64,000 nt of DNA from the NCBI GenBank assembly GCA_018650645.1, contig JABIFP010000025.1, forward strand, positions 7,976-71,975. Reading direction: 5' to 3'. A program made the translations under genes and the position numbers. The notes under the pieces were generated by a model. It made no database searches, was not told the DNA's origin, and was given only the letters and a program-made list of their open reading frames with translations. This DNA comes from Candidatus Magasanikiibacteriota bacterium. GTDB taxonomy: Bacteria > Patescibacteriota > Patescibacteriia > Magasanikbacterales > UBA922. Below are positions 28,315-62,021 of the stretch, piece by piece; positions within the stretch are counted from its first letter, which is position 1, and every line of letters begins with the position of its first letter.

Positions 28315-28686
28315 CTATTTCTTAAGTGCTTTTTCTACATGTACGATTACTTCCGTAATTGGCGTGTTAGATTTTACAAAATAATCTACAGCTCCCAATT
28401 TTTTACACTTATCTTGATCTTCTGTTTGGCTCAAATTTGTAGACACAATAACGGGTGTTTTGTCACCACGTTTTTGTTTTTCTTCTAGTACGCCAAATCC
28501 ATCTACTTTCGGCATCATTAAATCAAGCAATACTAAATCGAATTTTCCATTTTTTAAATATACCAAAGCTTCTTCTCCGTCGTATGCATTCTCTACTGCA
28601 TACCCAGCTTTTGATAGCTTCAGCGCGAGCGCTTTTGCCATTGGTTTTTCGTCTTCAGCAATAAGGATTTTCTTTTTTGCGGCCAT
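28315..28686 (-). CDS. single-domain response regulator (CheY/PilH-like receiver) leading the pilus operon
   Basis: ILIAEDE, LVLLDLMMPKVDG, VIVSTNLS and DYFVKS receiver signatures in a 123-aa product. Confidence 0.85.
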   Translation of the reverse strand: MAAKKKILIAEDEKPMAKALALKLSKAGYAVENAYDGEEALVYLKNGKFDLVLLDLMMPKVDGFGVLEEKQKRGDKTPVIVSTNLSQTEDQDKCKKLGAVDYFVKSNTPITEVIVHVEKALKK

Positions 28687-28760
28687 AACAAAAAGGTCAA
28701 GAAAAAAATAGTTCTCTTTAGGTGCAGTATAGCATAAGAGTTTCTCTCAACCAAGCATTT

Positions 28761-29825: not shown

Positions 29826-29973
29826 ACACGAGGTTCTTTTTGAAATATACGATGACTCAAGTATACCTTGGCTGGGCAAAAAAAAGAACTCGCGCATATT
29901 GACAGAGAGCAAAAGCTATGCTACGTTGCGTGAAGAACACTAACTGCCGCAACGCGGCTAAGGGAGGACGGCC

Positions 29974-30579
29974 ATGGGAAGGCCAAAGAAGAAGGATGCG
30001 TGGTGCAAGACCCGGTACGGGCGGATTGGCCGCCTGATGGCCGATCCGGAAACTACTCATGACCAGAGACTGTTCCTGTTGCAGCTCGAAGAGTACCTGT
30101 CGATGAACGTCGATCAGGCACTCGATATCCTCGAGTGGCGCGGTGAAGCGCACGTCATCACCTCGCGACTTCACGGCATGGTCGACGGCATCGACCCGAT
30201 CGCTGCCAGGCATGGGCTGAAGCTGCCGTTCACTGCGGAGGGCGAGGGCGTGAACACCACCTGGACGTGGATCGAGTGGCAGATGATCACGCCGATGGAC
30301 CTGTTCTGGCGGAGAACGGGGAAAGGGAACGCCCCTCTACTCCTTCAGCTACAGGAGGGAGGCAACCCCGAACAAATTGCGTGCGCGCTCTACAAATATC
30401 CCAAAGGTACCAAAATGGTGGGTTGGACACCGACTGATCTGCGCGAAGCTGCCGCAGATGCAATCGAGGCACTTTTGCAGACGGCCGAACGTGCGGGTCT
30501 CGGCAACGTCATTCAGACATCGACTGCCGACGGCGAACCCTACTACCGCTGGGTCGGCCCCCAGATCCCGCCCGCCTAG
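29974..30579 (+). CDS. hypothetical protein encoded in a GC-rich island
   Basis: A 201-aa ORF in a ~60% GC segment. A strong RBS taagggaggacggccATG precedes it. No recognisable domain. Confidence 0.5.
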   Translation: MGRPKKKDAWCKTRYGRIGRLMADPETTHDQRLFLLQLEEYLSMNVDQALDILEWRGEAHVITSRLHGMVDGIDPIAARHGLKLPFTAEGEGVNTTWTWIEWQMITPMDLFWRRTGKGNAPLLLQLQEGGNPEQIACALYKYPKGTKMVGWTPTDLREAAADAIEALLQTAERAGLGNVIQTSTADGEPYYRWVGPQIPPA

Positions 30580-30702
30580 CCCACACTCAAAGGGCGCGAC
30601 AAGAGACTACCGAGTAGCCCGGTTCCTGGCTACAACCGATTGCGGGGCGCACGTCGCCCCCAATCACTTTACTACGGCATATACTGCCTTTTTATTTTAC
30701 AA

Positions 30703-30740
30703 AAAAAGAACCCGCGTTCACGGATTCTTTTTTCTTCTGC
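30703..30740. terminator. rho-independent terminator downstream of rplY (minus strand), usable in both directions
   Basis: Plus strand: aaaaaaagaacccgcg ttcac ggattctttttt. The stem pairs with one G-U wobble. Confidence 0.5.
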
Positions 30741-37999: not shown

Positions 38000-38108
38000 A
38001 TATATGTATAGTACCCTGTGCATTGACTGTTGTCAACACTGTCTTGACAGACTACTTATTTAACTCTATTTAGCTATTTTACATAAGGAAGATACTGTCT
38101 ACACCATA

Positions 38109-38137
38109 TTGACAAAATGCTTTTTCTATGCTATAGA
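38109..38137 (+). promoter_or_regulatory. putative sigma70-type promoter (TTGACA-N17-TATAGA)
   Basis: catATTGACAaaat, then a 17-nt spacer, then TATAGA. The same catattgacaaaat motif recurs at 46380. Confidence 0.35.
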
Positions 38138-38169: not shown

Positions 38170-39210
38170 ATGAGCTCTATTTCACTTTCCACAGAATTCC
38201 GTCTGGCGCGCGAGTACCCTGGTAAAACTCTCCGAGACCTTGCCTTGCACGGCTTTCGTTTGGAGCAGCTTGAAAAATTTGAAGCTGGCGAAATGAATGA
38301 GGACGGCAATCCCTTGATCCAAGGTGCTCACCTACTACGCCTTGAAAAGCACCTCGGTAGTGCGCTGTACCACTTTGCTCCAGACAGTACCCGTTCCAGC
38401 CGATTGCTCCATGAAGTGTACCTCGCGCTGGCGCAGTTGAGTACGACGCCTCTTAAGTTGGCAGACATAGCAACCACACTGCAGCTGAAGACTGAAGACC
38501 TCTACGACGTCTGGAGAGGAAAACGAGCACTTGACCTTGAGGCGGGTAAGGCACTGCTCGGTTTGATCTCTCGTCTGCAAAACTGCGAATTTGCACTACC
38601 TGCGGCATACGGAAGGAGGATCTCCGCCGCAAGAAAGCGAGAAGGCCTTTCTCGAGAGGAACTTGCTCAAGCCGTACGAACACACCACTCCGTTGTGGAA
38701 ATGTGGGAGACTGATGAACTCTACCTAGCCGACGACCAGCATGCCGCGCTTGAATCGGTGTTAGGGCCGATGGAGAAAAGCCCAGCACACTGCAACGTGG
38801 ATCTCACGGCGCTCCTCAAGTCGCAGAGACATCTCAAGTCGAGGAGGCTCCAATTTTGGATCAGCGCAGCAAAGACAATCCGCATCGTGCGAGATGAAGG
38901 AGCCCCGCAGAGTGCTGACTGCCTTACGTGCACAACAGGTGACCCCATCAGAAAGTCTCCCCGCATAGGTAGGCCTCCAAAGATAGAACCTCCAAAAGAA
39001 CCCTGCAATTGGCCCCACATGCGTGATTGCACGCACCAACCAGCGGAAAGCCTCGCCATTCTCAGTAGCGACGAATCACAGCGACTGATGGTGGTATCCG
39101 AACCCAGCGGAGAATTGTGGGCACAGTACCTTTTTGAGAATCTGCACGCAACCGATTCCTACACACAATCCCTTCAATCCTTCCTCCGTGATTTCAAACC
39201 GCTCCGTTGA
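38170..39210 (+). CDS. XRE-type helix-turn-helix protein encoded in a GC-rich island (hypothetical regulator)
   Basis: Cro/C1-type HTH (RRISAARKREGLSREELAQAVRTHHSVVEMWE). ~60% GC. RBS aagaggtcccATG. Confidence 0.55.
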   Translation: MSSISLSTEFRLAREYPGKTLRDLALHGFRLEQLEKFEAGEMNEDGNPLIQGAHLLRLEKHLGSALYHFAPDSTRSSRLLHEVYLALAQLSTTPLKLADIATTLQLKTEDLYDVWRGKRALDLEAGKALLGLISRLQNCEFALPAAYGRRISAARKREGLSREELAQAVRTHHSVVEMWETDELYLADDQHAALESVLGPMEKSPAHCNVDLTALLKSQRHLKSRRLQFWISAAKTIRIVRDEGAPQSADCLTCTTGDPIRKSPRIGRPPKIEPPKEPCNWPHMRDCTHQPAESLAILSSDESQRLMVVSEPSGELWAQYLFENLHATDSYTQSLQSFLRDFKPLR

Positions 39211-39349
39211 GCCCAGCTCCGGAGCACCCCCCTTTTTTTAAAGGGATTTTTTTATAGAAAAAACTGCATACCAATTGATATGCAGTTTCCTATGGTGGAG
39301 CCATAACAGCTCCACCGGTCATGCCGCATTACTGCGGCGCTCCTTATGT

Positions 39350-40036
39350 TCAGTCAGGACTCAGGCGCACCAGCCGGAAGCCCACCGTCGGCGTGAGTGT
39401 GTTCGGGTCGAAGCATGAGAAGTCCTTGAACCCATGCCCCGGCATCGTCATGAAGTTCCGTTGCCCGTGCACGTAGTTGCAGCGGCCCTCGCCATCCGCA
39501 CTCCACTCAGAGACGTTCCCCCAGGGGCCGCGAATGCGACCCGCAGCAAGCTGCGGTACCGGCGTTGGCTTGTTCTTCAAGCAACGTGGGACCTCCCTCC
39601 ACGGACATCCCACCGCCCCATCAGGACCGTCCGTCAGGTGGATGGCAGCCGCCGCCCACTGCACGCGTGAAGCCATGGCGTAGGTACCCTTGTGTGTCCG
39701 CGAGTACCACTCTGCGTAGATCTTCGCATCGTACCAGCTGAGCCGCATCGGTGCGTCGAGCACCTGGTTCAGCTGAGTGAGATGACGCGGATACGGCCGG
39801 CTCGAACTGTTCACGAACTGCGCGTACTCACGCACCGTGACTGGATCACGCGCGATGGCGAAGGCCTTCTTGACCTCCACACGCTGATACCCGTCTGGCA
39901 ACCACCTATCGGTGGACGTTCCCATCTGCGCCTTATAGACGCCGGCCGGAACCGTTTCAAACCGCGGGAGTTCTTCAACTCCCGCCAGTGCGCTGCCGCC
40001 AAGCAGCACACTACATATCGTCATCCAAAAGCGCAT
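39350..40036 (-). CDS. secreted FGE-sulfatase (SUMF1/formylglycine-generating-enzyme-like) domain protein, GC-rich island
   Basis: A signal peptide, then WGNVSEWSADGEG, GHGFKDFSCFDP and GFRLVR signatures of PF03781. RBS gggaggaaagccATG. Confidence 0.7.
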   Translation of the reverse strand: MRFWMTICSVLLGGSALAGVEELPRFETVPAGVYKAQMGTSTDRWLPDGYQRVEVKKAFAIARDPVTVREYAQFVNSSSRPYPRHLTQLNQVLDAPMRLSWYDAKIYAEWYSRTHKGTYAMASRVQWAAAAIHLTDGPDGAVGCPWREVPRCLKNKPTPVPQLAAGRIRGPWGNVSEWSADGEGRCNYVHGQRNFMTMPGHGFKDFSCFDPNTLTPTVGFRLVRLSPD

Positions 40037-40158
40037 GGCTTTCCTCCCTGTTGAGTCTCAAGAAAACATGTATTCTGATATGCTATAGATATCAGATTTG
40101 TGCGGTTTCGTCAATGGGAGGGTTGAAAAAAAGCATGTTTTACGCTACACTCATGCAT

Positions 40159-40440
40159 ATGAAAAAAATACTAGATCAAAAACGACAATCACTCGCCAAT
40201 GTAGATGCAGGACTCCTTGCACTCCTTGAACGGCGTGTTGAACTTGCCAGAGAGTTTGCAACTATCAAAAAAGAACTCGACCTCTCTACTTTTTTACCAG
40301 GAGTTGAACAACAAAAGATTGCTTCGCTCAAAGAAAAGACCCATGATCCGTTTGTAAAAAATGCAATCGAAATTTTATGGCCGGTACTTTTTGGTGTCTC
40401 AAAAAAACTACAAGACGAGGTACGCGCAGAACATAAGTAA
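40159..40440 (+). CDS. chorismate mutase (AroQ class, ~93 aa)
   Basis: LDQKRQSLANVDAGLLALLERRVELAREFATIKKE matches the AroQ helix-1 pattern. The start is ambiguous (ATG at 40135, 40153 or 40159). Confidence 0.6.
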   Translation: MKKILDQKRQSLANVDAGLLALLERRVELAREFATIKKELDLSTFLPGVEQQKIASLKEKTHDPFVKNAIEILWPVLFGVSKKLQDEVRAEHK

Positions 40441-40476
40441 AAAAAAGCGGCCAACCCAAGGGTTGGCGCGCAAAGG
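40441..40476 (-). terminator. rho-independent terminator for the minus-strand GC-rich lipoprotein gene
   Basis: On the minus strand: gccaaccc tt gggttggc, then cgcttttttttac. Confidence 0.5.
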
Positions 40477-40493
40477 TCATGAGGCGTCAGCCC

Positions 40494-40928
40494 CTACTGC
40501 GAAGCGCAGTACAAGAGCCGAACGGCGTAGCGCTGAGGTGCGAAGCCGATGTCGACGACCTGACGGTTGTCATAGTCGCCCTCCGGCATCTCTTCCTCAG
40601 TCTTCATGACGTCGTGGTCGTCCATGGCGATGAACTCAGCGTCGTCGCGTTCCCCCAGCAGCAAGTCCACAGAGGACCCGTTCTGAGAGAGCAGGTGAAA
40701 CTGCAGCGGCTGACTGACATGAATCCGGAGATTCGTGCTACCCCCCGCCGGAACGCTGAGCAGATCACCCCCATCGAGGACGATGATCAGCGGCTCACTA
40801 CCGGCCTGCAGCCTGAGATCAGTGCTTTCGCACGCCCCCTCGCCGCCGTTGACTTCTTCTTCAGCGCCAGGATCACACCCGGCAACCCCGCCAGCCAAGA
40901 TAGCCAGCACCAACACATATCGTTTCAT
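40494..40928 (-). CDS. putative lipoprotein, GC-rich island (hypothetical)
   Basis: MKRYVLVLAILAGGVAGC has a lipobox. RBS ttggaggggaccATG. ~62% GC. Confidence 0.5.
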   Translation of the reverse strand: MKRYVLVLAILAGGVAGCDPGAEEEVNGGEGACESTDLRLQAGSEPLIIVLDGGDLLSVPAGGSTNLRIHVSQPLQFHLLSQNGSSVDLLLGERDDAEFIAMDDHDVMKTEEEMPEGDYDNRQVVDIGFAPQRYAVRLLYCASQ

Positions 40929-41307
40929 GGTCCCCTCCAAGGATCATTTTTGTTATGCAGCATTTGGCCGCATCTGAACAGTGTAGGGTCAAATGAGCAA
41001 TTTGTCAATGATGATATAGGCATTTTTCAGGAGGCCACCCTATTGACAAAAGCCCATTTTTATGGTATAGTTCTGCGTCGAATTGGTGACCTGATTTCAG
41101 CCTAGTTGAGATGAGTTCATCAGTGGTATTTGGCTAATTTTAGCGAAATATCCAATTGACTCACCAGTAGAGACGGAGCTGAGAAGCCACTCTTGTTACC
41201 TCTGTGACAACAGCGGTTTCTCAGTTCCATACATCAACCACCTCTCCTTCACACCTACCTTTGGAGAGGTATTGCTTCCCGCCAATGGCGGGTGATCGGA
41301 GAGCCGC

Positions 41308-42123
41308 ATGGCTCGCCTTTTCGTTCTGTTCCTGCTCGCCGCCCTGTCCACCGCCTGCGGCGGGAGCTGGGAGAACAGCTACGCCACCAAGAACTACGCG
41401 TGGGGTGAGAGCGATGTCACCCCGAAGCTGAACCCCAAGCAGCTCCAGACCTGGAGCAGCCTGACGGGGAAGATCTCCCGGTCCTACTACCCGGACGGCG
41501 TGGCGTTCTCGAAGTACCAGAACGTCGACACCTGGGATGCCAACCCGAATAAGGAAGGATATCACCCGCCCAAGCGGATCTCTTCCAGTACGGACATGCA
41601 GACAACGGAGAAGGCGCTTCTGACCAAAAAGATCCTCAGGATCTGTATGCCGAGCGCCCCGAAGAAGTGCAACAGGTCCACGACCATTCGCCTCTTCGTT
41701 CCCTTCGAGCAGCCGGACTGGAAGGTACACCCGGAGGGCCTCGTCGCCCATCATCTGATGGGCGACGTGCTCACGCAGCAGGATACCTACACGCTGCTGC
41801 TCCACATCGCCACTCAAATCCGGCAGATTCGCCAACGTAGGTTCCAGCAGTCCTGCAACGAGCAGGGCACGCCTGAGAACCTGCGACGAGTGTGCACGTC
41901 AAACATGAAAGAACATGGCTTCCTCCGCGACTTGAAGCCGCAGATCAACCGGTTGAAGAAGTCCCTATCCATCGGAAGGACGATCTCTGGCCCCTACCTG
42001 CCAATCCAGGAACTCCGAAAGGCGGACAGCGCTCTTGGCGACTACCTGGCCTACCAAAAGGGCGGCACCAAGCTGCACAACCACAAGGAGATGATGGCCC
42101 TCGCCGAGAGCCTCCTCCGTTAA
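41308..42123 (+). CDS. putative lipoprotein, GC-rich island (hypothetical)
   Basis: MARLFVLFLLAALSTACGG carries a lipobox and an upstream GGAGAG RBS. It is preferred over the antisense ORF 41221..41835. Confidence 0.5.
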   Translation: MARLFVLFLLAALSTACGGSWENSYATKNYAWGESDVTPKLNPKQLQTWSSLTGKISRSYYPDGVAFSKYQNVDTWDANPNKEGYHPPKRISSSTDMQTTEKALLTKKILRICMPSAPKKCNRSTTIRLFVPFEQPDWKVHPEGLVAHHLMGDVLTQQDTYTLLLHIATQIRQIRQRRFQQSCNEQGTPENLRRVCTSNMKEHGFLRDLKPQINRLKKSLSIGRTISGPYLPIQELRKADSALGDYLAYQKGGTKLHNHKEMMALAESLLR

Positions 42124-42142
42124 TCACTCTCTACTGGCATCA

Positions 42143-42168
42143 GGCCCGCTCCGGCGGGCCTTTGTCTT
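42143..42168 (+). terminator. GC-rich rho-independent terminator ending island 4
   Basis: ggcccgc tccg gcgggcc followed by tttgtctt. Confidence 0.6.
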
Positions 42169-42226
42169 ATACGCAATATCCGCCAAAGCCATAGCGTAGG
42201 AGGACCCAAAGATATCCCCAATCCTC

Positions 42227-42255
42227 TTGACAAAACCACCAAAATTCGGTATATT
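42227..42255 (+). promoter_or_regulatory. sigma70-type promoter (TTGACA-N17-TATATT) for secE-nusG
   Basis: An exact -35 TTGACA at 42227-42232, a 17-nt spacer, TATATT at 42250-42255, ~40 nt upstream of secE. Confidence 0.55.
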
Positions 42256-42295
42256 CTGAATACATCGGCCTAGGGCCGTTTTTAAATACATTCGT

Positions 42296-43166: not shown

Positions 43167-43592
43167 ATGGCAAAAGCAATTAAGGCTCAGATCAAATTGC
43201 AGATCAGAGGTGGCGCTGCTAACCCAGCACCTCCAGTTGGTCCAGCTCTTGGTCAACATGGGCTCAACATTCAAGACTTTTGTACGCAGTTCAACAATGC
43301 AACTGCAGACAAACGTGGAGAAGTAGTACCAGTTGTTATCGACGTGTACGACGACAGAACATTTACCTTCATCATGAAGGTTGCGCCAGCAAGCGCACTC
43401 ATCAAGTCTGCTCTTAACCTAAAGAGTGGATCTGGAAATCCTTTGAAAGAAAAAGTTGCAAAGCTTTCTAAAAAACAATTGCAAGAAATCGCAGAAAAGA
43501 AGATGCCAGACCTCAATGCAAATGACATTGAAGCAGCGATGAAAATTATTGCTGGAACAGCACGACAAATGGGAGTTACTATTGAAGAATAA
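43167..43592 (+). CDS. rplK: 50S ribosomal protein L11
   Basis: The N-terminal [11 protein letters not shown] motif is present, over 141 aa. Confidence 0.95.
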
Positions 43593-43608
43593 ACACTCCG
43601 CACATACA

Positions 43609-43637
43609 AAACTCGCCTCAATAGGCGAGTTTTGTTA
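43609..43637 (+). terminator. rho-independent terminator after rplK
   Basis: aaactcgcct caat aggcgagttttgtt. Confidence 0.75.
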
Positions 43638-43668
43638 TACTTGTGATATATTTTTCTTCGCATAGCAT

Positions 43669-44610
43669 ATGCCATCAGTAGTTTCTCGTATTCACTCGCC
43701 AACAGTCGCTATTATTGGCGCTGGTTTTGTTGGCTCTACCATTGCATATGCGCTCGCTATAAAAAATATCGCTTCAGAATTATTACTGATCGATATAAAT
43801 AAAGACAAACAAGAAGGAGAAGTCATGGACATTTCAGATGCCATGTGTTTTTTAGAAACAGGATGTGTCAGAAGCGCTACATATAAAGAAGCGCGCAAAG
43901 CAGATATCATTATTGTTACCGCTGGGGTCAATCAAAAACCTGGTGATACTCGATTAGATTTATTAGAAAAAAATGCCGGCATCATGCAATCGATTTTTTC
44001 TTCGATTGGAAAGCTGAGTAAAGATACAATTGTTATTGTCGTCTCAAATCCAGTAGATGTTTTAACGCAGCTTATTACCAAACTTACCAAGCTTCCAGCC
44101 GGACAAGTATTTGGTACAGGAACAACGCTTGATAGCGCACGACTCACATCGATTGTAGGACAGGAACTTGGAGTAAGTCCACAAAGTGTTCGTGGATTTG
44201 TATTAGGCGAACACGGCAACTCACAATTTGTTGCATGGAGCACGGTAACTATTGGCGGCGTACCTGCAAAAGATATTAAGGCGCTTAACGCTAAAGTAAA
44301 AAAGCGCATTGAAAAACGCGTGAAGCAAGAAGCCTATACTATTATTGAAAAAAAGGGAGCAACGTATTACGGCATCGGTCTTACTGTGGCAGACATTGTA
44401 GAAGCTGTCCTCTTTGATCAAAAAAAGATTATGCCAATTTCAGCGCCGCTAAAAAAATGGAATGGGGTGTCTGGAACATCGCTTGGATCCCCGCACGTGG
44501 TAGGAAGAAATGGGGCGGAAAGACAATGGCCAATGACACTTCCACCGCAAGAAAAAAAACAATTTGTGGCTTCAGCAAAATTGCTTCAATCAATGTATAA
44601 CTCGCTATGA
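43669..44610 (+). CDS. ldh: L-lactate dehydrogenase (LDH/MDH family)
   Basis: VAIIGAGFVGS NAD motif, a GEHGNS motif and a catalytic His region. Confidence 0.85.
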   Translation: MPSVVSRIHSPTVAIIGAGFVGSTIAYALAIKNIASELLLIDINKDKQEGEVMDISDAMCFLETGCVRSATYKEARKADIIIVTAGVNQKPGDTRLDLLEKNAGIMQSIFSSIGKLSKDTIVIVVSNPVDVLTQLITKLTKLPAGQVFGTGTTLDSARLTSIVGQELGVSPQSVRGFVLGEHGNSQFVAWSTVTIGGVPAKDIKALNAKVKKRIEKRVKQEAYTIIEKKGATYYGIGLTVADIVEAVLFDQKKIMPISAPLKKWNGVSGTSLGSPHVVGRNGAERQWPMTLPPQEKKQFVASAKLLQSMYNSL

Positions 44611-45470
44611 AATACCTGAAATACACCGCACTGTTTGCTAGTCTTTTGCTGGTGTTTGGATTTGGATGCTCATCAAAGACGCCCGCAGAAACACGCGTTG
44701 CGCAAAATGATGACATTGTTTCAAGCACGCCAATGCAAGAAGCATATTTGTTTTGTACAACACAAGGATACTCGGTTCACATTGAACGTTCTGCGGAATC
44801 TTTAAGTGGACATGTGTATTGTCAGTTTGACGAGGCGCGCAGTTGCCCAGCATTTGAATTCCTTTCTGGCGATTGTGATGTAGAAAATGCTGACGGTCAA
44901 TTACCAGCAGAAACAGCCGCAATTATTGATGAATCAGATCTTTCTATTTCTACTGGGCCAAGATTTTGCCCATCCGTTGCGGAACCGGTGTGTGGAGAAG
45001 ACAGCCGCACGTATGTAAATGATTGTGTAGCAGAACTGCAAGGCGTAGAAATTATTCATGAAGGTGCTTGTGAAAATCCGGTGATTTTAGACGACCCGGC
45101 ATCAGAAACTGACGCATCCGGAAGAAAAAGACGAACAGTTCGGAGTACAAATACATCCAGAAAGACTTCTAGCGGCAGTTCTTCATCAGGATCAACCAGC
45201 CAGTCTACTGACCGAGAGGTCACTCCTGAATCCCCAGATTGGATTGATAGCTTAATTGCTTTACTCCGAGCTGATGCGTCACTCAGCACGGCATCTATTG
45301 ATAGCTGCAAAGCTGGAAGCCGTACGTATTACCTGCAACGAGGAAATTTCTCTGCGCTGTACGATACACGAGGGCAAGTAATTTGTTACCCTGGTAGAGA
45401 CGTGCATGACACATGTCCGGAAAGTTACCGAGATGGCGAATTCAGGTGTCAGGAGATTTGGAAAAAATAG
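44607..45470 (+). CDS. lipoprotein with a DUF333 domain and a Kazal-type protease-inhibitor-like domain
   Basis: Lipobox VFGFGCSS. DUF333-like FCTTQGYS...YCQFDEARSC..EF.SGDC. Kazal signature EPVCGEDSRTYVNDC...EGAC. Translationally coupled to ldh (ATGA overlap). Confidence 0.6.
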   Translation: MKYLKYTALFASLLLVFGFGCSSKTPAETRVAQNDDIVSSTPMQEAYLFCTTQGYSVHIERSAESLSGHVYCQFDEARSCPAFEFLSGDCDVENADGQLPAETAAIIDESDLSISTGPRFCPSVAEPVCGEDSRTYVNDCVAELQGVEIIHEGACENPVILDDPASETDASGRKRRTVRSTNTSRKTSSGSSSSGSTSQSTDREVTPESPDWIDSLIALLRADASLSTASIDSCKAGSRTYYLQRGNFSALYDTRGQVICYPGRDVHDTCPESYRDGEFRCQEIWKK

Positions 45471-45482
45471 CATACAAAAGAA

Positions 45483-45512
45483 AAGAATCGCCAATGGCGA
45501 TTCTTTTTATAT
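45483..45512. terminator. bidirectional rho-independent terminator
   Basis: agaatcgcc aat ggcgattct then ttttat, with an A-rich stretch before it. Confidence 0.7.
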
Positions 45513-45601
45513 ACAAAAAAGCCGCACCAAGGTAACGAGCTTTCTCGTCCGCTTGTGTGCGGCGGTGCACGCGGTTGCATGCGTCCCTCCTTGTTGTGTG
45601 G

Positions 45602-45928
45602 TCAGCCCGGGGGGCCGATGATGATGATCTTGGGAGCAAAGCCGAACCTCTGTCCCGGGTGTCCCAGGATGACTCCACGACTGCCTTCCAAGGTGTCTTG
45701 GACAAACCAGCTCTTGGGGTCACGAAGCTCAAGCTCGCTGACACCCCAGTTCAAGATCAGACCGGTAGCCCCCTCTTCGACCCAATCAAGCCGCTGCTGG
45801 TGCCACGTACTCACATCCTCCGGCGGATAGTAGCGATTCGTGACAAGATCAATGCCAACATGTATCCCGCCATGACGGAAACATACCGTGCCCCCTACGA
45901 AGCGCTTCAACATCTCGAGTGTAACCAT
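45602..45928 (-). CDS. hypothetical protein, GC-rich island (strand assignment uncertain)
   Basis: A 108-aa ORF in tandem (12-nt gap) with the 45940-46299 ORF. The overlapping plus-strand ORF 45557..45958 cannot be excluded. Confidence 0.3.
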   Translation of the reverse strand: MVTLEMLKRFVGGTVCFRHGGIHVGIDLVTNRYYPPEDVSTWHQQRLDWVEEGATGLILNWGVSELELRDPKSWFVQDTLEGSRGVILGHPGQRFGFAPKIIIIGPPG

Positions 45929-45939
45929 CTACCCCTCCT

Positions 45940-46299
45940 CTACTGGTATTCGCACTGATCTCGCAGCGCTTGCCACTGAGTAAACGGCGGTTTCCAGATC
46001 TGGATACGCCGTACGACCAACCGTTTGAGATGGTCTGCGTCGTCCAGCTCGATTCTTCCGCCCTGCTCATGCAGCTTGCAAGAATCCATCAGGATATACG
46101 AGCCGTAGCGATCCGTGGCGACCCGCACAACTCGATACACCCGCACCTCAGCACTAAAAGCCTCTGTCCGAACCGAGACAAAATCCCCGATCTGGAGCAG
46201 GCTCAGCGCAGCGCTCAGTGCGGGCACCGAATCCGGCCGCTGCTGCGCAGAGGCGGTAACCGTCAGCAGAAGAGACACCAAAATCCACAGAACCTTCAT
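45940..46299 (-). CDS. secreted hypothetical protein, GC-rich island
   Basis: A signal peptide MKVLWILVSLLLTVTASAQQ. A strong RBS ctgggaggtcaatATG. Confidence 0.45.
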   Translation of the reverse strand: MKVLWILVSLLLTVTASAQQRPDSVPALSAALSLLQIGDFVSVRTEAFSAEVRVYRVVRVATDRYGSYILMDSCKLHEQGGRIELDDADHLKRLVVRRIQIWKPPFTQWQALRDQCEYQ

Positions 46300-46382
46300 A
46301 TTGACCTCCCAGTCAGTTTTTGCGATATCTGCTCTAGTTGTAGCATACATTCCCAAATATTTCAATACCAGCGCCCCTCATA

Positions 46383-46412
46383 TTGACAAAATCGCCATAA
46401 TATAATAGTATA
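46383..46412 (+). promoter_or_regulatory. putative promoter upstream of rplA (TTGACA ... TAGTAT / TATAAT)
   Basis: catATTGACAaaatcgccataaTATAATagtat. The spacing to TATAAT is short (12 nt), and 18 nt to TAGTAT. Confidence 0.3.
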
Positions 46413-46474
46413 CGCCCACTTAATACATGTGGGACTTCCGTCTAGGAAGGCTATCACCACGTAACCCTATTGCT

Positions 46475-47155
46475 ATGAGCAAGAGAATGAACGAAGCAAA
46501 CGCACAAGTTGAAGCAATTCGCGTATACTCACTTACTGAAGCTGTAGAACTTGTAAAGAAAACAAGCACAGTAAAGTTTGATGCTTCTGTAGAAGTACAT
46601 GTACGACTTGGAATCAACACCAAAAAAGGTGACCAACAAGTACGATCAACTGTGGTTCTTCCACACGGAACAGGAAAAACGAAACGCGTTGCAGCATTTG
46701 TTGCACCGAATGATGAAGAAGCTGCAAAAGCAGCAGGAGCGGACTTGGTACTTGGAGAAGAAGAAATCAAGACATTAAAAACAACAGGAAAAATCGATTT
46801 TGATGTAGCCGTTGCTACACCAGAAATGATGCCAAAGATTGCAGTAGCAGCAAGAGTGCTTGGACCCCGTGGTCTTATGCCAAATCCAAAAACTGATACT
46901 GTAGGAAAAGATTTTGCAAAAATGATTGGTGACCTGAAAAAAGGAAAAGCTGCATTTAAAAATGATGACACAGCAAATGTGCATCAGCTCGTTGGAAAAG
47001 TAAGTTTTTCTGAAGAGCAACTTGTAGAAAACATCACCGCATTCATGGATGCACTGAAAAAAGTAAAACCAGCAACAATGAAAGGAGTTTACTTCAAGTC
47101 ACTCACACTTACGAGTGCTATGGGACCTGGAGTAAAATTCTCTGTAGACGCGTAA
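46475..47155 (+). CDS. rplA: 50S ribosomal protein L1
   Basis: N-terminal MSKRMNEANAQVEAIRVYSLTEAVELVK..., a central DFDVAVATPEMMPKI segment and C-terminal GVYFKSLTLTSAMGPGVKF match L1 over 226 aa. ATG at 46475 in the track ORF frame. Confidence 0.95.
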   Translation: MSKRMNEANAQVEAIRVYSLTEAVELVKKTSTVKFDASVEVHVRLGINTKKGDQQVRSTVVLPHGTGKTKRVAAFVAPNDEEAAKAAGADLVLGEEEIKTLKTTGKIDFDVAVATPEMMPKIAVAARVLGPRGLMPNPKTDTVGKDFAKMIGDLKKGKAAFKNDDTANVHQLVGKVSFSEEQLVENITAFMDALKKVKPATMKGVYFKSLTLTSAMGPGVKFSVDA

Positions 47156-47170
47156 TACCGTTTACAAACA

Positions 47171-47200
47171 AAAACAGCGCATACATGCGCTGTTTTTGTT
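47171..47200. terminator. rho-independent terminator after rplA (copy 1 of a duplicated hairpin)
   Basis: aaaaacagcgcat acat gcgctgtttttgttttt. Confidence 0.8.
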
Positions 47201-47263
47201 TTTCTCCAACGCAGCTAAGAAGCGTTGTTGGGGTTTGTGGTGCCTCTACCCGATCTGACTCCT

Positions 47264-47554
47264 TCAGGTCTCTGCGTCTTGAGGCGAGATAGAATACACG
47301 GAAACACCAATTCCCTCTTTCTGAATCTTCTGCGCGTCCACCAACTCCTCAAGCGCAAACCTGACAGCTGCCAAATTACATGCTGGCAGCGCAGCAAGAA
47401 TTGCTGCGGAAGCAAGAGGCCTCTCACTGCGCTCGAGAACCCTGAGTACGCGTTGACGCACCCTATGCCCAGCCCAGCTTGTCATGGCACCAAACAGCAA
47501 GAACAGCAGCATGACCCCAGCCATCACATACATGATCATGAATATCCCACCCAT
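47264..47554 (-). CDS. small hypothetical membrane / winged-helix-like protein, GC-rich island
   Basis: An N-terminal TM (MGGIFMIMYVMAGVMLLFLLFGAM) followed by a helical segment. The start is ambiguous (ATG at 47554 or TTG at 47596) and there is no clear RBS. Confidence 0.3.
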   Translation of the reverse strand: MGGIFMIMYVMAGVMLLFLLFGAMTSWAGHRVRQRVLRVLERSERPLASAAILAALPACNLAAVRFALEELVDAQKIQKEGIGVSVYSISPQDAET

Positions 47555-47632
47555 TTTGTACTGGCTGAAATTACCAAATGCAGAAGGTATTGTCAATGCT
47601 ACCCACTATCCCGAGTGAATCTAACGAAAACA

Positions 47633-47664
47633 AAAACAGCGCATGTATGCGCTGTTTTTGTTTT
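47633..47664. terminator. rho-independent terminator after rpsA (minus strand; copy 2, inverted, of the same hairpin)
   Basis: aaaaacagcgcat gtat gcgctgtttttgtttt is the exact reverse complement of the 47171-47200 element. Confidence 0.75.
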
Positions 47665-47672
47665 CTGCATGA

Positions 47673-48950
47673 TTACTCAGCAGCTTCTTCTTTTGCCTCT
47701 TCTTCCTTAGGAGCCTCCTCTACCTTTGGCGCTTCTTCCGCCTTAGGTGATTCTTCTTCCTTAGGTTCTTCTTCAACTTTTGGCTCCTCTTCTTTTGGTG
47801 CCTCTTCTACCTTAGGTTCTTCTGCTTTTGGCGCTTCTTCAGTAGACTTTTCAGCCTTCTTCTTAAGTCCACCAAGGCGAAGTCCCAATCGGTGCTCTGC
47901 AGCATCAATGTTGAGAATTTCAAATGTTGTTTTTTGTCCAAGAGTGAACATATCTTCAAGTTCTTTCACGTCGCGAATTGCTCGGTTTGAAACTTCAGAA
48001 ATGTGCGCAAGCCCATGAATATCTTCATCAAGCTTTACCATCAAACCAAATGGTTCGATTTTGTGGATTTCTCCTTCCACTTCTTGTCCAATTTTGTATG
48101 TTTCTTTCACACTCTTCCATGGATCGTCTACAAGACGCTTCATTGAAAGATAGATTTTTGATTTGTTGAGATCAATAATTTGCGCTTTTACGTTGTCACC
48201 AACCTTGAGCACATCTTTTGGATGATCAATTCGTTGCCAAACAATCTCTGAGATATGGATAAGTCCTTCAAGACCTTGTCCAAATTTCATGAACGCACCA
48301 AAACTGGTAAGCGCACTGATTTGTCCTTCAACAATATCTCCAATAGAGTATGAGTCAAGTACCGCTTTTTGATCGTCTTCCCAAACAGCCTTTTCTGACA
48401 CAATCAATTTTTCATCTTGTTCGTTGAGGTCAAGAACTTTTACATCCATTCCCATTCCAACAAAACTGCGGAGGTGTTCTAAAATACGATTTTTGTCACC
48501 ACCTTGTACACGAGGGTAATGTTCTGGAGCAAGTTGACTTACTGGCATAAATCCTACCAATGCGTCTACCTTGATCATCAAACCACCCTTGTTGGCAGCA
48601 ATAACTTTTCCTTTCACAACAAGTTCATCATCACAATACTTTTGCATTGTTTTCCAAACGCGTTGTTGTCCAGCAATACGGAATGATAATTCCATTTCAC
48701 CAGTTTCGTTTTCTTGTTCAACTACTGTTGCTTCAACAGCGTCTCCAACGTTAATGTCAGAATATTCACTTGATTCTGAAAACAGTTCATATCCACGGAC
48801 AAGTCCAGTGATAAGTCCATTTACATCAAGTCGAACGGCTCCGTTATCAATAGAGATAACTGTTCCGCTTACCAACTCTCCAACCTTTGGAAGTTGTGCA
48901 AAATAATCTTCTAACAGCGTTGCAAAGTCGCTTTGTGTTGTATTTGCCAT
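47673..48950 (-). CDS. rpsA: 30S ribosomal protein S1 (four S1 domains) with a C-terminal (E/A/P/K) repeat tail
   Basis: Four S1 repeats (e.g. GQEVEGEIHKIEPFGLMVKL). The tail is EEAPKAEEPKVEEAPKEEEPKVEEEPKEEESPKAEEAPKVEEAPKEEEAKEEAAE. Confidence 0.9.
   Translation of the reverse strand: MANTTQSDFATLLEDYFAQLPKVGELVSGTVISIDNGAVRLDVNGLITGLVRGYELFSESSEYSDINVGDAVEATVVEQENETGEMELSFRIAGQQRVWKTMQKYCDDELVVKGKVIAANKGGLMIKVDALVGFMPVSQLAPEHYPRVQGGDKNRILEHLRSFVGMGMDVKVLDLNEQDEKLIVSEKAVWEDDQKAVLDSYSIGDIVEGQISALTSFGAFMKFGQGLEGLIHISEIVWQRIDHPKDVLKVGDNVKAQIIDLNKSKIYLSMKRLVDDPWKSVKETYKIGQEVEGEIHKIEPFGLMVKLDEDIHGLAHISEVSNRAIRDVKELEDMFTLGQKTTFEILNIDAAEHRLGLRLGGLKKKAEKSTEEAPKAEEPKVEEAPKEEEPKVEEEPKEEESPKAEEAPKVEEAPKEEEAKEEAAE
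47690..47860 (-). repeat. in-frame nucleotide tandem repeats (~15-27 nt units) encoding the EAPK/EEPKV tail of S1
   Basis: Recurring cttcttc..ttagg..cttcttc..cctttgg units on the plus strand. Confidence 0.5.
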
Positions 48951-52889: not shown

Positions 52890-52911
52890 TGCGAGCAACA
52901 ATAGACAAACA

Positions 52912-52938
52912 AAAAAAGCGCGTTATGCGCTTTTTTTG
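52912..52938. terminator. bidirectional rho-independent terminator
   Basis: aaaaaaagcgcg ttat gcgctttttttg. Confidence 0.75.
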
Positions 52939-52950
52939 TTTGGTATGGGT

Positions 52951-54198
52951 TTATGCTCCTTTTTCAATTATATCTGCAACTTTATGCACATGCGGAATCA
53001 CATCATCCTTTGCATACTTACTTCCTCCGGCTAAATTATCTGCATACGCGCGAAGCCCCGTAACAACCTCTTCCTTTTGCACTGCTGGCAGTGTCCAAAG
53101 TGTCTCATAATCTGCCGTAAGCTCTCCCATCTGGCGATAGAGTTCCGCGTCATCAGAGTCTACGTTCCGAGTAAACGCACCTCGCTCTACCCACCTATCC
53201 ATTGCCTGTTCTTGCTGTTCTGAAAGTTCTTGAGGTGCTTCACGTGCAGATTCTTTATCAGCAACACGTTCTGTTATTTTTGCAGGTTTTGTTTCTCTTG
53301 GTATTTCAGATACTTTTTTTGATTGCTCTACAAGAGCCGGTGATTCGCTGCGAATATCTTCTGTCAAACGATTTGCTTTGTCCACTAAGTCTAGCGGATC
53401 ATAGGAACCAGAATCCACATAATTATTAATTCCCTGAGCTCTTCTCACAACATCTTCCGAATACCCCTTTGCTTGCAGTTGTTCCGCAAGCTCTTGCCAA
53501 TATGTAGCATCTTCTAGCCTACCACTCTCTGCAGGTAATACCACCTCTATAGATGCGTGCACTAATTTCAACTCCAGTTTTGCCCCTTTTTCCGCCCCAA
53601 TGGCAGGATTTACCTCCTGCGCCGCAGCATGACGCTCACGTGATTCACGCTTTTTCTCTGCTCGCTCCATTGCTGCAGCATCACCAATTGCCTCAACATC
53701 CCTATCAAGCGCCAATTCTCTTGCATCCATCGTTGTTTCATACCGACTCTTTCCAATTCCTTCTACCCCTCTGTCCGCTTGCAGCCGGGCAACTTCCGTT
53801 TTGAACTGTGCAAGTGCGTCAGTATACGCTTCAATATGCTGATGACTATCATTTTCAGCAGGACGATCAACTCCCCTCGCTAACAACTCCTGCCGAACAC
53901 CTTTTGCTACGTCAGCCGCAGTCATTTTTCCTTTCAGCGCTGCTGCGACGGCTTCCGCATGTTCTTTGGCTGCGCTCATTTCCGGAAAATCCAAAGTCTG
54001 AGCAATTTCTTCCCACCCTTGAAGCAATTGTGCATCAGAGCCTCCTTCACTCGTTGGCAATTTTGCCTCCATCACACGTCCAATAAGCATTTTTCCATCT
54101 AAAAACTGTTCTTTTGCAGCACTCGCAATATCTTGCTCTGAACGTTCCGGAACACTCTGCAATTCAAATGATTCTGATTGTGTAGGTTCCATAACCAT
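52951..54198 (-). CDS. hypothetical acidic soluble protein (415 aa), co-directional with and abutting ruvA
   Basis: No recognisable domain. Native-like composition with no SD. Its start lies 1 nt after the ruvA stop. Confidence 0.5.
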   Translation of the reverse strand: MVMEPTQSESFELQSVPERSEQDIASAAKEQFLDGKMLIGRVMEAKLPTSEGGSDAQLLQGWEEIAQTLDFPEMSAAKEHAEAVAAALKGKMTAADVAKGVRQELLARGVDRPAENDSHQHIEAYTDALAQFKTEVARLQADRGVEGIGKSRYETTMDARELALDRDVEAIGDAAAMERAEKKRESRERHAAAQEVNPAIGAEKGAKLELKLVHASIEVVLPAESGRLEDATYWQELAEQLQAKGYSEDVVRRAQGINNYVDSGSYDPLDLVDKANRLTEDIRSESPALVEQSKKVSEIPRETKPAKITERVADKESAREAPQELSEQQEQAMDRWVERGAFTRNVDSDDAELYRQMGELTADYETLWTLPAVQKEEVVTGLRAYADNLAGGSKYAKDDVIPHVHKVADIIEKGA

Positions 54199-56996: not shown

Positions 56997-57839
56997 ATGA
57001 AAATACGATTTGATGCAGGAGTCAGCCGAATTGTTGGCTGGAAGGTTGATCCGAGAGGGGAGAAAATTCCCCAATCTCAGCAAGACAGCTTCATTGTCAG
57101 CGAGAAGCTCGGTCTGTTCGTTGTCTTTGACGGCGTGGGTGGGCATGCAGGCGGAGAAGTTGCCAGCGCCATGGCGGCGACGCTTTTGGAAGAGAGCTTC
57201 ACGCTGCTGATACAAGTACTTGAGGTGGAAGCAGCACAGCGCGAACCCTACCGAATCCAATCGGAGATAGAAGCTGCGCTCAGGCGGGCCAGTAGAGCAA
57301 TCTACCACGCCGGCCGCAGAGATCCTGCGCTTGATTACATGGCCACCACAGTCAGCGGCGTCTTCTTCTACGAAGGAACCGCCTACTACTTCAACGTCGG
57401 CGACAGCCGCTGCTACAGGGAGCAAAACGGCGAGTTTGAGCAGATGACGCGGGATCACTCCTATGTGGCTGACCAGCTCTATGAGGGACTCATCACCGCA
57501 GAAGAGGCGCGAAACCACCCAGATCGAGGTGGGATGCACGCGGCACTTGGATTCCGCGACATTTCCGATTATGTCGATGTCCGCTACACACCCTCGCAGC
57601 CCGGCGACGGCTGGATCATCTGCACGGACGGCCTGGTGGACTACGCCGACCCGGACCGATGGGAAGTTGTAGCGTCTTCCCAACTACGCCGTGGCATCTG
57701 CACCGACGAGATCGCTACGACGCTGACCAACCTGACCACCGCAGAAGCCGGTATTCCACTGGGGTCTTTCCCCGGCGAGTACTACGACTACAACAGGTGC
57801 GACAACACCACGGTGATTGCACTGCGCATTTGCCGATGA
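56997..57839 (+). CDS. PP2C-family (PPM) serine/threonine protein phosphatase, GC-rich island
   Basis: VVFDGVGGHAGGEVAS, NVGDSR, TDGL and DNTTV motifs. ~62% GC. RBS aaaaggggtacattcATG. Confidence 0.8.
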   Translation: MKIRFDAGVSRIVGWKVDPRGEKIPQSQQDSFIVSEKLGLFVVFDGVGGHAGGEVASAMAATLLEESFTLLIQVLEVEAAQREPYRIQSEIEAALRRASRAIYHAGRRDPALDYMATTVSGVFFYEGTAYYFNVGDSRCYREQNGEFEQMTRDHSYVADQLYEGLITAEEARNHPDRGGMHAALGFRDISDYVDVRYTPSQPGDGWIICTDGLVDYADPDRWEVVASSQLRRGICTDEIATTLTNLTTAEAGIPLGSFPGEYYDYNRCDNTTVIALRICR

Positions 57840-57865
57840 ACAACCGAGGAGACGACAAAAAAACG

Positions 57866-57897
57866 ACCGGGGCTAGGGGCCCGGTCGTATTTTTTTT
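57866..57897. terminator. GC-rich rho-independent terminator after the PP2C gene; also downstream of valS
   Basis: acgaccgggg ctagggg cccggtcgt then attttttttg. Confidence 0.7.
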
Positions 57898-57899
57898 GC

Positions 57900-60794: not shown

Positions 60795-61000
60795 AGGAAA
60801 AATAAAAAAAACACCTGTAAAATGAGGACTCCATTGGAGCGGTACCACCTCAATTCCACACGTGTGGCGCTTGATTACAGCTGTACTGGGCTTACCCATG
60901 GGATTCTACTTGGCTGTTTGCCGTTCTTTCCCTTGCGCATCGATTCGATTCCCGGTTGATTGCCGGTATGGCGCTTGTTTTTATTGTGGATTTACTATAG
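60795..61000 (-). promoter_or_regulatory. putative T-box riboswitch leader of valS
   Basis: The minus strand reads AATTGAGGTGGTACCGCT, ~45 nt upstream of the start (T-box consensus AATTAGGGTGGNACCGCG). Downstream is ...ACAGGTGTTTTTTTT. Upstream is a TTGACT-N16-TATAGT promoter. Confidence 0.5.
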
Positions 61001-61054
61001 CAGATGCAAGTTATTAGTCAAGAACAAACACCTCTATATATAGTATGTATTAAA

Positions 61055-61098
61055 AAAGGCGCCGCCGGGTGATCCCCGGTCGACGCCATGTTCTTGGT
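61055..61098 (-). terminator. GC-rich rho-independent terminator for the minus-strand island gene
   Basis: Minus strand: ggcgtcgaccgggg atcac cccggcggcgcc then ttttttaat. Confidence 0.5.
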
Positions 61099-61111
61099 TC
61101 CCCCCGAATGG

Positions 61112-61888
61112 TCAGCTCAGATGACCTGCTTGCTGAAGCAGCGTCACTAGAGCCTTGGGATCCACGGCAAGCTTGGCAAGCTCGCTCTCTGCGCGAAGCC
61201 GCTGCACTTGTAGCTCACCAGCCTCAATAGCGGTGGCGAGCGCCTCTTTCCTGGCATGCGAGAGGGCCTTCTCCGCCTGACGCTCCCCTTCCGTCCGCTT
61301 CATGGACTGCAGTTCATCATAGGCGCGACCACACTCAGCCTGAGCAGCCTCATACGCGGTGACAGCGCTCTGAAGAGTACGCTGGAGCTGACGCACCTCA
61401 CCAGCGTGAATCTCCACACCCGCCTGATGAGCCAATAGAAGTTGTTCAGCCTCAGCCATCGGTGTCATGCCGCCGACGAGTAGTCCGCTGACCATGCCGA
61501 TCTCACTCTCGACCTGCGCTCGCTCTGTTTGGTGCCCGCGTAGGTTCTTCTTCGCCACCGCCAGCTCGTACCCGTCCCCCACAACGGCGGCCAGCCTGTC
61601 GCGAAGCGCTGATGGCTTCATCCCTTTCAGCGATAGCTTGAGCTCCGTTCGCGTGGAGTTGTTGCCCGGCTGCACCGTGACCGTCACGCCGCTCGAGTCG
61701 ATATCCCCGATCTTGGCGTTCTGGAGACCCTTGGTGTGTCCCGTACCTCTCGGCATCCCGCTCGTAAGCTTCACCGATAGCTCCCCTGCGAGCTGAGCAA
61801 GCTCGGCCCACTCGCGAAGAATCCTCTCCAAGAGCCTCTTGAGCTTTGAGTCGGGATCATGCCCCTTAAACTCAATTTGCAAACTCAT
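61112..61888 (-). CDS. hypothetical coiled-coil protein, GC-rich island
   Basis: A 258-aa ORF, ~62% GC, whose C-terminal half is Ala/Glu/Gln-rich heptad-like sequence. No recognisable domain. Confidence 0.5.
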   Translation of the reverse strand: MSLQIEFKGHDPDSKLKRLLERILREWAELAQLAGELSVKLTSGMPRGTGHTKGLQNAKIGDIDSSGVTVTVQPGNNSTRTELKLSLKGMKPSALRDRLAAVVGDGYELAVAKKNLRGHQTERAQVESEIGMVSGLLVGGMTPMAEAEQLLLAHQAGVEIHAGEVRQLQRTLQSAVTAYEAAQAECGRAYDELQSMKRTEGERQAEKALSHARKEALATAIEAGELQVQRLRAESELAKLAVDPKALVTLLQQAGHLS

Positions 61889-62021
61889 CCTTTACTCTAC
61901 TTTCAACCACGGTAGTAAAGATGTGGTCCCTCACTAATACCACTTTTATTACCAAATAGTCAAGCCTCCTTGCCCCTCCGCGCCTACCTGCTATAATGGC
62001 TACACATATATAAAAGACTCT

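Follow-up and report, generated by a model that had tools for sequence, protein, structure and literature searches.

A lineage-specific gene insertion flanked by two inverted copies of a putative bidirectional terminator, between rplA and rpsA of a Candidatus Magasanikiibacteriota bacterium

Introduction

Bidirectional intrinsic terminators between convergent bacterial genes are known from Term-seq and SEnd-seq work. MITEs include some that bear terminators, for example the Correia elements of Neisseria. Islets with direct repeats that restore the target are also known, and they include the att cores of tRNA-integrating islands and the IMEX elements at dif. Bidirectional intrinsic terminators are discussed in bioRxiv 10.1101/2022.10.23.513370, and up to 13% of the genome length of Patescibacteria has been ascribed to horizontal transfer (PMC12455944).

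This report describes a locus in a 64,000-nucleotide stretch of DNA from a Candidatus Magasanikiibacteriota bacterium (the window), in which a GC-rich segment with a small ORF lies between the convergent genes rplA and rpsA, and each end of the segment carries one copy (H1 and H2) of the same hairpin, H. Like the bidirectional terminators, H has a GC-core hairpin with an A-tract on its 5' side and a T-tract on its 3' side and lies directly past the stop codons of convergent genes. Unlike them, it is present twice, in inverted orientation and with a new gene in between, and its termination is predicted here from the sequence. The locus resembles MITEs in being short and intergenic, in having terminal inverted repeats and in that it could affect transcription of its neighbors. 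However, it is single copy in the window, lacks a target-site duplication and a related transposase, and has its own promoter-like site and ORF; furthermore, each H copy, taken as a terminal inverted repeat, is by itself a complete palindromic terminator.

As in the target-restoring islets, DNA of foreign composition lies between duplicated copies of the target and the terminator is kept, and this occurs twice in the window. The differences are that the inserts are only 0.4-0.8 kb, that there is no integrase, that the repeats are 37 and 16 nt, that a terminator takes the place of the tRNA gene or dif as the target, and that the rplA-rpsA repeat is inverted at its center. With integron gene cassettes the locus shares a unit of ~0.5 kb, a single ORF and an imperfectly symmetric hairpin-forming site, but it has no integrase, attC cores, extrahelical bases or array, and its ORF has a promoter-like site of its own. 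Finally, the islands described in PMC12455944 are likewise compositionally atypical DNA inserted in CPR genomes, whereas those of the window range from less than a kilobase to 2 kb, contain mostly orphan genes, lie 10-17 GC points over the core and in two cases are bracketed by duplicated terminator sequence. The word "terminator" has no occurrence in PMC12455944 (term search), and searches of the literature gave no described class in which an inserted gene is enclosed by a duplicated terminator.

Organization of the rplA-rpsA Junction

The rplA gene, which encodes ribosomal protein L1, is located at 46475..47155 on the plus strand (Pfam Ribosomal_L1, E=5.6e-55); in public assemblies its start is an alternative upstream ATG at 46427, which gives a protein of 242 aa. 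The L1 protein is 100% identical to P0002 and 82% identical to the orthologue in the closest relative discussed below. Together with L25, it assigns the organism to Candidatus Magasanikbacteria (Patescibacteria/CPR). The convergent neighbor is an rpsA-like gene with S1 domains at 47673..48950 on the minus strand (Pfam S1, E=4.9e-42; 425 aa in public assemblies). Its product has a repetitive, EEAPK-type C-terminal tail, with tandem 15/18-nt repeats at 47686-47840.

Hairpin H1 (47166..47202, AAACAAAAACAGCGCAT-AC-ATGCGCTGTTTTTGTTTT) is separated from the rplA stop codon by 10 nt, and hairpin H2 (47627..47664, AAAACAAAAACAGCGCAT-GT-ATGCGCTGTTTTTGTTTT) from the rpsA stop codon by 8 nt; neither is assigned to a strand. 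A preliminary description of this DNA had reported exact reverse-complement repeats of a 38-nt hairpin at 47171-47200 and 47633-47664, separated by ~430 bp of 58% GC with a small ORF. The exact complementarity is correct, with arms that lie a few bases away, at 47166-47202 and 47627-47663. The hairpin is real, but its length is 37 nt, and the segment between the arms, at 424 nt, is GC-rich relative to the neighboring genes but has an actual GC content of 51.4%. The small ORF is present as well, on the minus strand.

The two arms are 37 nt long, 100% complementary and 424 nt apart, and 100 dinucleotide-preserving shuffles of the window gave no match to an inverted repeat of this type. Each hairpin is also a near-perfect palindrome, with a stem of 17 bp in H1 and 19 bp in H2 and a 2-nt center. 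Consequently the pair can also be read as a direct repeat (47166-47202 versus 47628-47664), in which 35 of the 37 positions are identical and the sole difference is the central AC versus GT. The predicted RNA folding energies on the two strands are -24 and -25.2 kcal/mol for H1 and -28.2 and -28.8 kcal/mol for H2, with z-scores of -4.2 to -6.7 relative to shuffled sequences on both strands.

The symmetry of the A-tract and T-tract places T-tracts 3' of the H stem on both strands, and in its perfectly paired A-tract/GC-stem/T-tract layout H resembles about ten other gene-end hairpins of the window. By their anatomy, H1 and H2 are bidirectional intrinsic terminators of a type that is common at the gene ends of this genome, which agrees with their earlier assignment as the terminators of rplA and rpsA, and they would presumably be active as such. 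H1 would stop transcription of rplA on the plus strand and of the inserted ORF, whose stop codon is 61 nt from H1, on the minus strand. H2 would stop rpsA transcription on the minus strand ahead of the promoter of the new ORF and thereby insulate that promoter from rpsA read-through. Two copies of one hairpin would thus keep three convergent or tandem units insulated from each other. The inverted orientation of the H copies also means that both ribosomal-protein mRNAs would end in an identical RNA hairpin, whose loop is UACA.

The Insert and Its Orphan ORF

The insert (47203..47626, no strand assigned; 424 nt) is lineage-specific and absent from the syntenic relative. Its GC content of 51.4% rises to 53.3% in the ORF and to 55.5% in the peak 200-nt window, as compared with 40.5% in each of rplA and rpsA. 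The ORF, at 47264..47539 on the minus strand, encodes 91 aa from the ATG at 47539 or 96 aa from the ATG at 47554, and it can also be extended to 47596. The 91-aa version is the one also picked by the gene callers in public assemblies; where the ORF is taken here as 110 aa or 96 aa, and rplA as 226 aa, the public gene calls start at other codons.

A promoter-like site precedes the ORF on the minus strand (47568..47596). It consists of TTGACA (47596-47591), a 17-nt spacer that ends in TGg, and TAATTT (47573-47568). The site was read directly from the minus strand; the automatic promoter scan omitted it because its -10 hexamer is only a 3/6 match. A GGTGGG stretch is located between the promoter-like site and the ATG at 47539 on the same strand. 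The site presumably functions as a promoter, and the ORF would be translated.

The N-terminus of the predicted protein is a hydrophobic helix, with a mean Kyte-Doolittle value of 2.35 over residues 1-19. The C-terminal part is weakly winged-helix-like (Pfam HTH_20, E=1.4e-4; its 22.2 bits are under the cut-off of 27), and an AlphaFold model made from the single sequence is all-helical with two long helices, at low confidence (pLDDT 65). The protein itself was the only homologue in a word-indexed search that covered 5.8 billion proteins, and the same holds for full phmmer against 1.84 billion representative proteins; among 15 billion proteins the ORF is confined to this same locus. IMG/VR, PHROGs, PADLOC, NCBIfam and the PDB sequences gave no significant match, and the ORF has no similarity to the TrmB-like regulator encoded in the window. 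We also considered the insert as a known RNA and rejected it. Rfam reports nothing in the whole window at gathering thresholds, and at E<=1 it gives only sub-threshold hairpin noise in the region (miRNA and leader models). The insert DNA has no second copy within the 64-kb window or at the related loci.

The arrangement is fixed in the contigs of the species that were compared. At least 24 contigs, the longest of 614 kb, carry the species' ORF and rplA, and 22 of them were fetched (L002, L003, L010-L019 and L024-L033); these come from different ENA/JGI samples and different assemblers. All 22 have the order rplA-H1-insert-H2-rpsA with the sequence of the window, save for one SNP in L002, and all have the AC and GT loops. 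None of the 22 has an empty site, an alternative site or a reversed insert. Thus neither an assembly artefact nor a chimera accounts for the arrangement, which is non-polymorphic at the assembly level.

Comparison with Related Bacteria

Among other genomes, GCA_041294365.1 (loci L004 and L034) is the closest, and it is the only relative that shares the rplA-rpsA junction. Its gene order is identical to that of the window over more than 30 kb, and around the junction (L004) it reads nusG-rplK-ldh-Kazal-rplA-rpsA(-)-lactamase_B-hypothetical-gyrA. In this genome rplA and rpsA are 122 nt apart and there is no insert, which agrees with the earlier proposal that the segment was inserted. We consider it nearly certain that the 424-nt segment is an insertion, and it probably arrived after the split from this nearest sequenced relative.

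The spacer of the relative contains two hairpins, T1, 9 nt past the rplA stop codon (ACAAAAGAGCAGCC-gaaa-GGCTGTTTTTTTGT), and T2, 6 nt before the rpsA stop codon (AAAAAAAGAACCGC-ataac-GCGGTTCTTTTTTT). They are 40 nt apart and differ from each other in sequence. The suggestion in the preliminary description of one ancestral bidirectional terminator common to both genes is therefore not supported by the only comparable relative. Since this relative has two hairpins without an insert, a duplication is not needed to account for two terminators at the junction.

H1 and H2 are located where T1 and T2 are, yet they are not sequence orthologues of them. H matches T1 and T2 at 25 of 36 positions each, which is background, as the values across all terminators of both genomes are 19-25 of 36. 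The H copies are identical to each other and unlike the hairpins of the relative, and hence they must stem from a copying event. With one informative relative, the ancestral junction may have had a single hairpin or a pair that was either different or identical in sequence. In five more distant loci (L005-L009), whose L1 proteins are 74-77% identical, rplA is followed by a dCMP-deaminase operon or by other genes instead of rpsA, so that they cannot polarise the junction.

Origin of the Hairpin Sequence

The closest match to H in the window is G, the terminator of gyrA (52906..52942, no strand assigned), which is 5.3 kb away. G and H have 32 identities in 36 positions, and their arms, AAACAAAAAAAGCGCA in G and AAACAAAAACAGCGCA in H, differ by one compensated base-pair change. 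The pattern AAACAAAAANAGCGCA, with at most one mismatch allowed, is present in the window only at H1, H2 and G, as compared with 0.03 occurrences expected by chance. The G stem is identical in the relative (L004), and because it is kept there, G is the ancestral sequence and H the derived copy. The terminator stem of the Kazal gene is also conserved between the window and the relative. Because the gyrA and Kazal-gene stems are conserved in this way, the rplA and rpsA hairpins look as if they had been replaced rather than having drifted.

No exact copy of H other than H1 and H2 was found in the 64-kb window, which belongs to a genome of at least 614 kb, and no exact copy at all was found in 185,579 GTDB species genomes, the JGI metagenome collection or IMG/VR. 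The stem core was also scanned for with a free 2-nt center, using AAAACAGCGCATNNATGCGCTGTTTT in GTDB and the shorter AAACAGCGCATNNATGCGCTGTTT in JGI and IMG/VR. There was one match in the GTDB species genomes, four in the JGI metagenome collection and none in IMG/VR. The five matches are unrelated generic terminators on five unrelated contigs, with other loops and other flanks. As a counter to its own reading, the preliminary description had raised the possibility that the hairpin is a generic terminator found at many unrelated loci without a GC-rich insert. This applies to a small degree, in that there is one near-copy, G, with no accompanying insert at the 3' end of gyrA, and the stem core recurs in the five contigs.

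Other GC-Rich Islands

The rplA-rpsA insert is not the only GC-rich island. Against a core GC content of ~41%, the window has nine islands of 0.4-2 kb with 52-58% GC. Their genes are mostly orphan ORFs, but genes for an FGE-sulfatase-like protein, a PP2C phosphatase and an HTH protein are also found. As no tRNA or tmRNA was detected in a scan of the window, the GC-rich islands are not such RNA genes.

Four islands can be compared with the relative, namely those at 13.1-13.6 kb, 29.9-30.7 kb and 45.5-46.4 kb and the rplA-rpsA insert. All four are missing from it (the one at 29.9-30.7 kb was checked in L034), and two of them have duplicated terminator sequence at both ends. The second case is the 29.9-30.7 kb island. 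Its left edge carries a terminator arm at 29878..29894 (AAAAAAAAGAACTCGCG), and its right edge is the L25 terminator at 30700..30732 (AAAAAAAGAACCCGCG-ttca-CGGATTCTTTTTT), neither being assigned to a strand. A 16-nt direct repeat, AAAAAAAGAAC[T/C]CGCG, is present on both sides of the island, at 29879-29894 and 30701-30716, and its second copy is formed by the left arm of the L25 terminator. The motif AAAAGAAYNCGC occurs in the window only at the two edges of this island (0.13 occurrences expected). This second island suggests that new DNA is inserted at terminators and that terminator sequence is duplicated in the process.

The islands at 13.1-13.6 kb and 45.5-46.4 kb are without a flanking duplication, and the latter entered cleanly between a terminator and a promoter. 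An inverted match (19 nt, 79%) between the terminator arm of the Kazal gene and the rplA promoter was considered as a possible duplication and rejected, because it is mostly ancestral promoter sequence that is present in the relative (L004). A flanking repeat around an island in L006 was also set aside; it lies inside the secE coding sequence and is a chance match. In another Magasanikbacteria lineage (L007 and L008), unrelated GC-rich islands are present on both flanks of rplA.

Mechanism and Alternative Explanations

The explanation that we favor, and consider probable, is a lineage-specific, non-transpositional insertion at terminators in which terminator sequence was duplicated. According to this explanation, the junction of the convergent rplA and rpsA genes would have gained a small gene unit of foreign composition once the lineage had separated from the nearest sequenced relative. 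On the minus strand, this unit would consist of a sigma-70-like promoter, a weak ribosome-binding site and the 91-aa orphan ORF with its N-terminal membrane-type helix. With the insertion, or at about that time, the hairpins at both gene ends would have been replaced or duplicated by one near-copy of the gyrA terminator. That the duplication of the terminator was tied to the insertion event itself is a part of the explanation toward which we lean only slightly.

Integration most likely took place at a terminator hairpin and could have proceeded by short-homology recombination or by template switching during replication. The differing repeat lengths at the two islands (37 versus 16 nt) fit either of these processes acting at hairpins, and because the lengths differ, they argue against a transposase with a fixed stagger. 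The loops add a further constraint. A staggered cut or a direct duplication gives identical loops, so the inverted loops need either an extra step or a crossover that is free of orientation. Cruciform-resolution and staggered-nick models, when worked out on paper, were rejected as explanations by themselves; they predict direct repeats with identical loops and not the AC/GT inversion. Since only 2 nt of the palindrome break its symmetry, copies could be joined in either orientation by a crossover inside a 17-nt arm, and this would give the AC/GT inversion. Alternatively, the inversion could come from a later flip of the loop by template switching.

A different order of events is that two terminators were already present in the ancestor, that GC-rich DNA landed between them by illegitimate recombination, and that the hairpins were homogenised later, by gene conversion or template switching among nearby hairpins, including the gyrA terminator. 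The two hairpins of the relative, at exactly the H1 and H2 positions, would be the expected starting state, and the 45.5-46.4 kb island indicates that DNA can be inserted without a duplication. Local copying of hairpin sequences is also evident from H itself, which is a near-copy of a third hairpin at a distance of 5.3 kb. However, gene conversion needs homology, and A/T tracts are all that T1 and T2 have in common with each other and with H, as reflected in the 25 of 36 identities. Furthermore, two positions would have to be converted independently to one sequence, and the duplicated arm exactly at the edges of the second island fits a duplication linked to insertion better. We therefore regard later homogenisation as unlikely.

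A mobile cassette with hairpin ends, which could be MITE-, PATE- or integron-cassette-like, would have the 37-nt palindromes as its recombination sites. In one version, a 462-nt unit made up of one hairpin and the insert would be excised in circular form and inserted at terminator hairpins that match its own, for example that of gyrA. The perfect 37-nt terminal inverted repeats, the cassette-sized unit with one ORF and the related hairpin nearby at gyrA are all what such a cassette would show. The duplicated terminator arm that brackets the second island is reminiscent of att-type cores, and the GC-rich islands on both rplA flanks in L007 and L008 can be seen in the same way. The signs of mobility, however, are missing. 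The window has one copy of the unit, GTDB, the JGI metagenomes and IMG/VR lack the exact hairpin, and the ORF is present nowhere else among the 15 billion proteins; nor is there an empty-site or alternative-site variant in the 22 contigs. The flanks, CCGTTTAC before H1 and CTGCATGA after H2, have no bases in common, and thus there is no target-site duplication. Transposase, integrase, invertase, TnpA (Y1) and TnpB domains are absent from the window ORFs of at least 100 aa, and RuvA is the only recombination protein detected in the window. Overall, we find a mobile cassette of this general kind quite improbable.

The specific forms of such an element were also considered individually. The preliminary description had called the segment MITE-like, and a search for other copies of the hairpin or the insert gave no exact one in the 64-kb window. 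We reject the MITE reading with great confidence, as the unit is single copy in the window, has neither a target-site duplication nor a transposase, and is coding, with a promoter-like site and an ORF in the insert. An integron cassette with an attC site was rejected because the hairpin is perfectly paired, GTTRRRY-type/RYYYAAC core sites are absent from the hairpin and its flanks, and the window has no integrase. A PATE derived from IS200/IS605 was rejected on the grounds of the perfect A/T-tract hairpins, the single copy in the window and the lack of a Y1 transposase or TnpB in the window.

Finally, although 37-bp perfect inverted repeats around a 424-bp segment with a promoter-like site are what an invertible, phase-variable segment flipped by a site-specific recombinase would have, this can be put aside as extremely improbable, since inversion would turn the promoter and its ORF as one block that stays enclosed by terminators, with no obvious change, all 22 contigs have one orientation at the assembly level and the window has no invertase or recombinase gene.

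Conclusions

The rplA-rpsA case is an instance of known phenomena, that is, a lineage-specific islet, bidirectional terminators and a flanking duplication, and it is not a new kind of element. Taken alone, an insertion with duplicated terminators is ordinary genome flux. The comparison with the relative nevertheless gives a before and after view of it, in which a streamlined CPR genome would have gained a foreign orphan gene between highly expressed ribosomal-protein genes and left these undisturbed, with a terminator at the end of each transcription unit.

Together with the second island, the case hints that terminator hairpins may be preferred, self-repairing insertion points. A more far-reaching idea, which we consider improbable, is that terminator hairpins are landing or attachment sites for integrase-less mini gene cassettes, each of which would bring its own promoter and terminator copy along with an orphan ORF. 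The idea draws on two cases in 64 kb, which are two of the four comparable islands. If it is true, integration would duplicate the hairpin wholly or partly, the resident genes would keep their terminator and the newcomer would arrive insulated; terminator sequences of the gyrA/H family would then spread along with the cassettes. If the pattern were to hold genome-wide, it would provide a testable rule on the sites and the manner of entry of orphan genes into reduced genomes.

GC-rich islands in the window

Nine islands of 52-58% GC are present in the window, the core of which has a GC content of about 41%. They lie at 13104-13567, 29863-30730, 38183-40091, 40376-40996, 41152-42279, 45466-46361, 47204-47577, 57002-57922 and 60817-61913. 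Most of the genes in these nine islands are orphan ORFs, alongside one FGE-sulfatase-like, one PP2C and one HTH_3-like gene. None of the nine contains an rRNA or tRNA gene.

Several of the islands can be compared with the corresponding positions in the nearest relative with matching gene order (GCA_041294365.1, loci L004 and L034). Compared with L004, the window has a GC-rich insertion of 864 nt upstream of rplA (45515-46378), between the terminator of the Kazal-like gene and the rplA promoter. The inserted DNA has two orphan ORFs, both on the minus strand, and one of them has a signal-peptide-like N-terminus. No terminator duplication accompanies this insertion. Another GC-rich insertion (13040-13680) separates the YceI and transaldolase genes, which are only 26 nt apart in the relative; it has a minus-strand orphan ORF of 141 aa and its own hairpin at 13053-13081. 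The island at 29.9-30.7 kb consists of a promoter and an orphan ORF of 201 aa, and a 16-nt direct repeat that corresponds to one arm of the L25 terminator is present at both of its edges (at 29878-29894, and within the L25 terminator at 30700-30732). The relative lacks this island, and in L034 the L25 gene and the DUF3048 gene are separated by 114 nt with a single hairpin.

Divergence and gene order

The core of the window genome is about 75-85% identical to that of the relative at the nucleotide level, and some genes are far more diverged. The GC-rich FGE-sulfatase-like gene at 39350-40036 (minus strand) has 43% amino-acid identity to its counterpart at L004 5433-6167 (minus strand). The hypothetical gene downstream of gyrA (52951-54198, minus strand) is 46% identical to the one at L004 15934-17163 (minus strand).

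The window also has an 8.5-kb type IV pilus/type II secretion-like gene block (20282-28761), including pilin-type N_methyl proteins, T2SSF, T2SSE and a response regulator, which is flanked by the 6-phosphogluconolactonase and DUF3048 genes. These two flanking genes are adjacent in the relative, and so, the block is missing at that position.

At its 3' end the rpsA-like gene has tandem repeats of 15/18 nt (47686-47840), and the tail encoded there is acidic, proline-rich and of the EEAPK type. The whole protein is 425 aa in the window and 385 aa in the relative, where the tail of this type is shorter.

The surroundings of rplA

As a rule, rplK and rplA are adjacent. In this clade the two are split by genes for a lactate/malate dehydrogenase and a Kazal-domain protein (43167-47155; L004 7550-10669). 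A promoter-like motif, CA(C/T)(A/C)(T)ATTGACAAAA...TA(T/G)(G/T)(C/A)T, is repeated 5' of island genes and of rplA, with copies at 38102-38136, 41036-41070 and 46375-46410; the rplA copy is kept in L004.

In another Magasanikbacteria lineage (loci L007 and L008, with L1 74% identical), rplA is likewise flanked by GC-rich islands on both sides, at 5483-5993 and 6730-7791 in L007 and at 1786-2231 and 3013-4050 in L008. None of the ORFs of these islands is related to the window's ORFs. The regions on either side of rplA seem to be recurrent landing sites.
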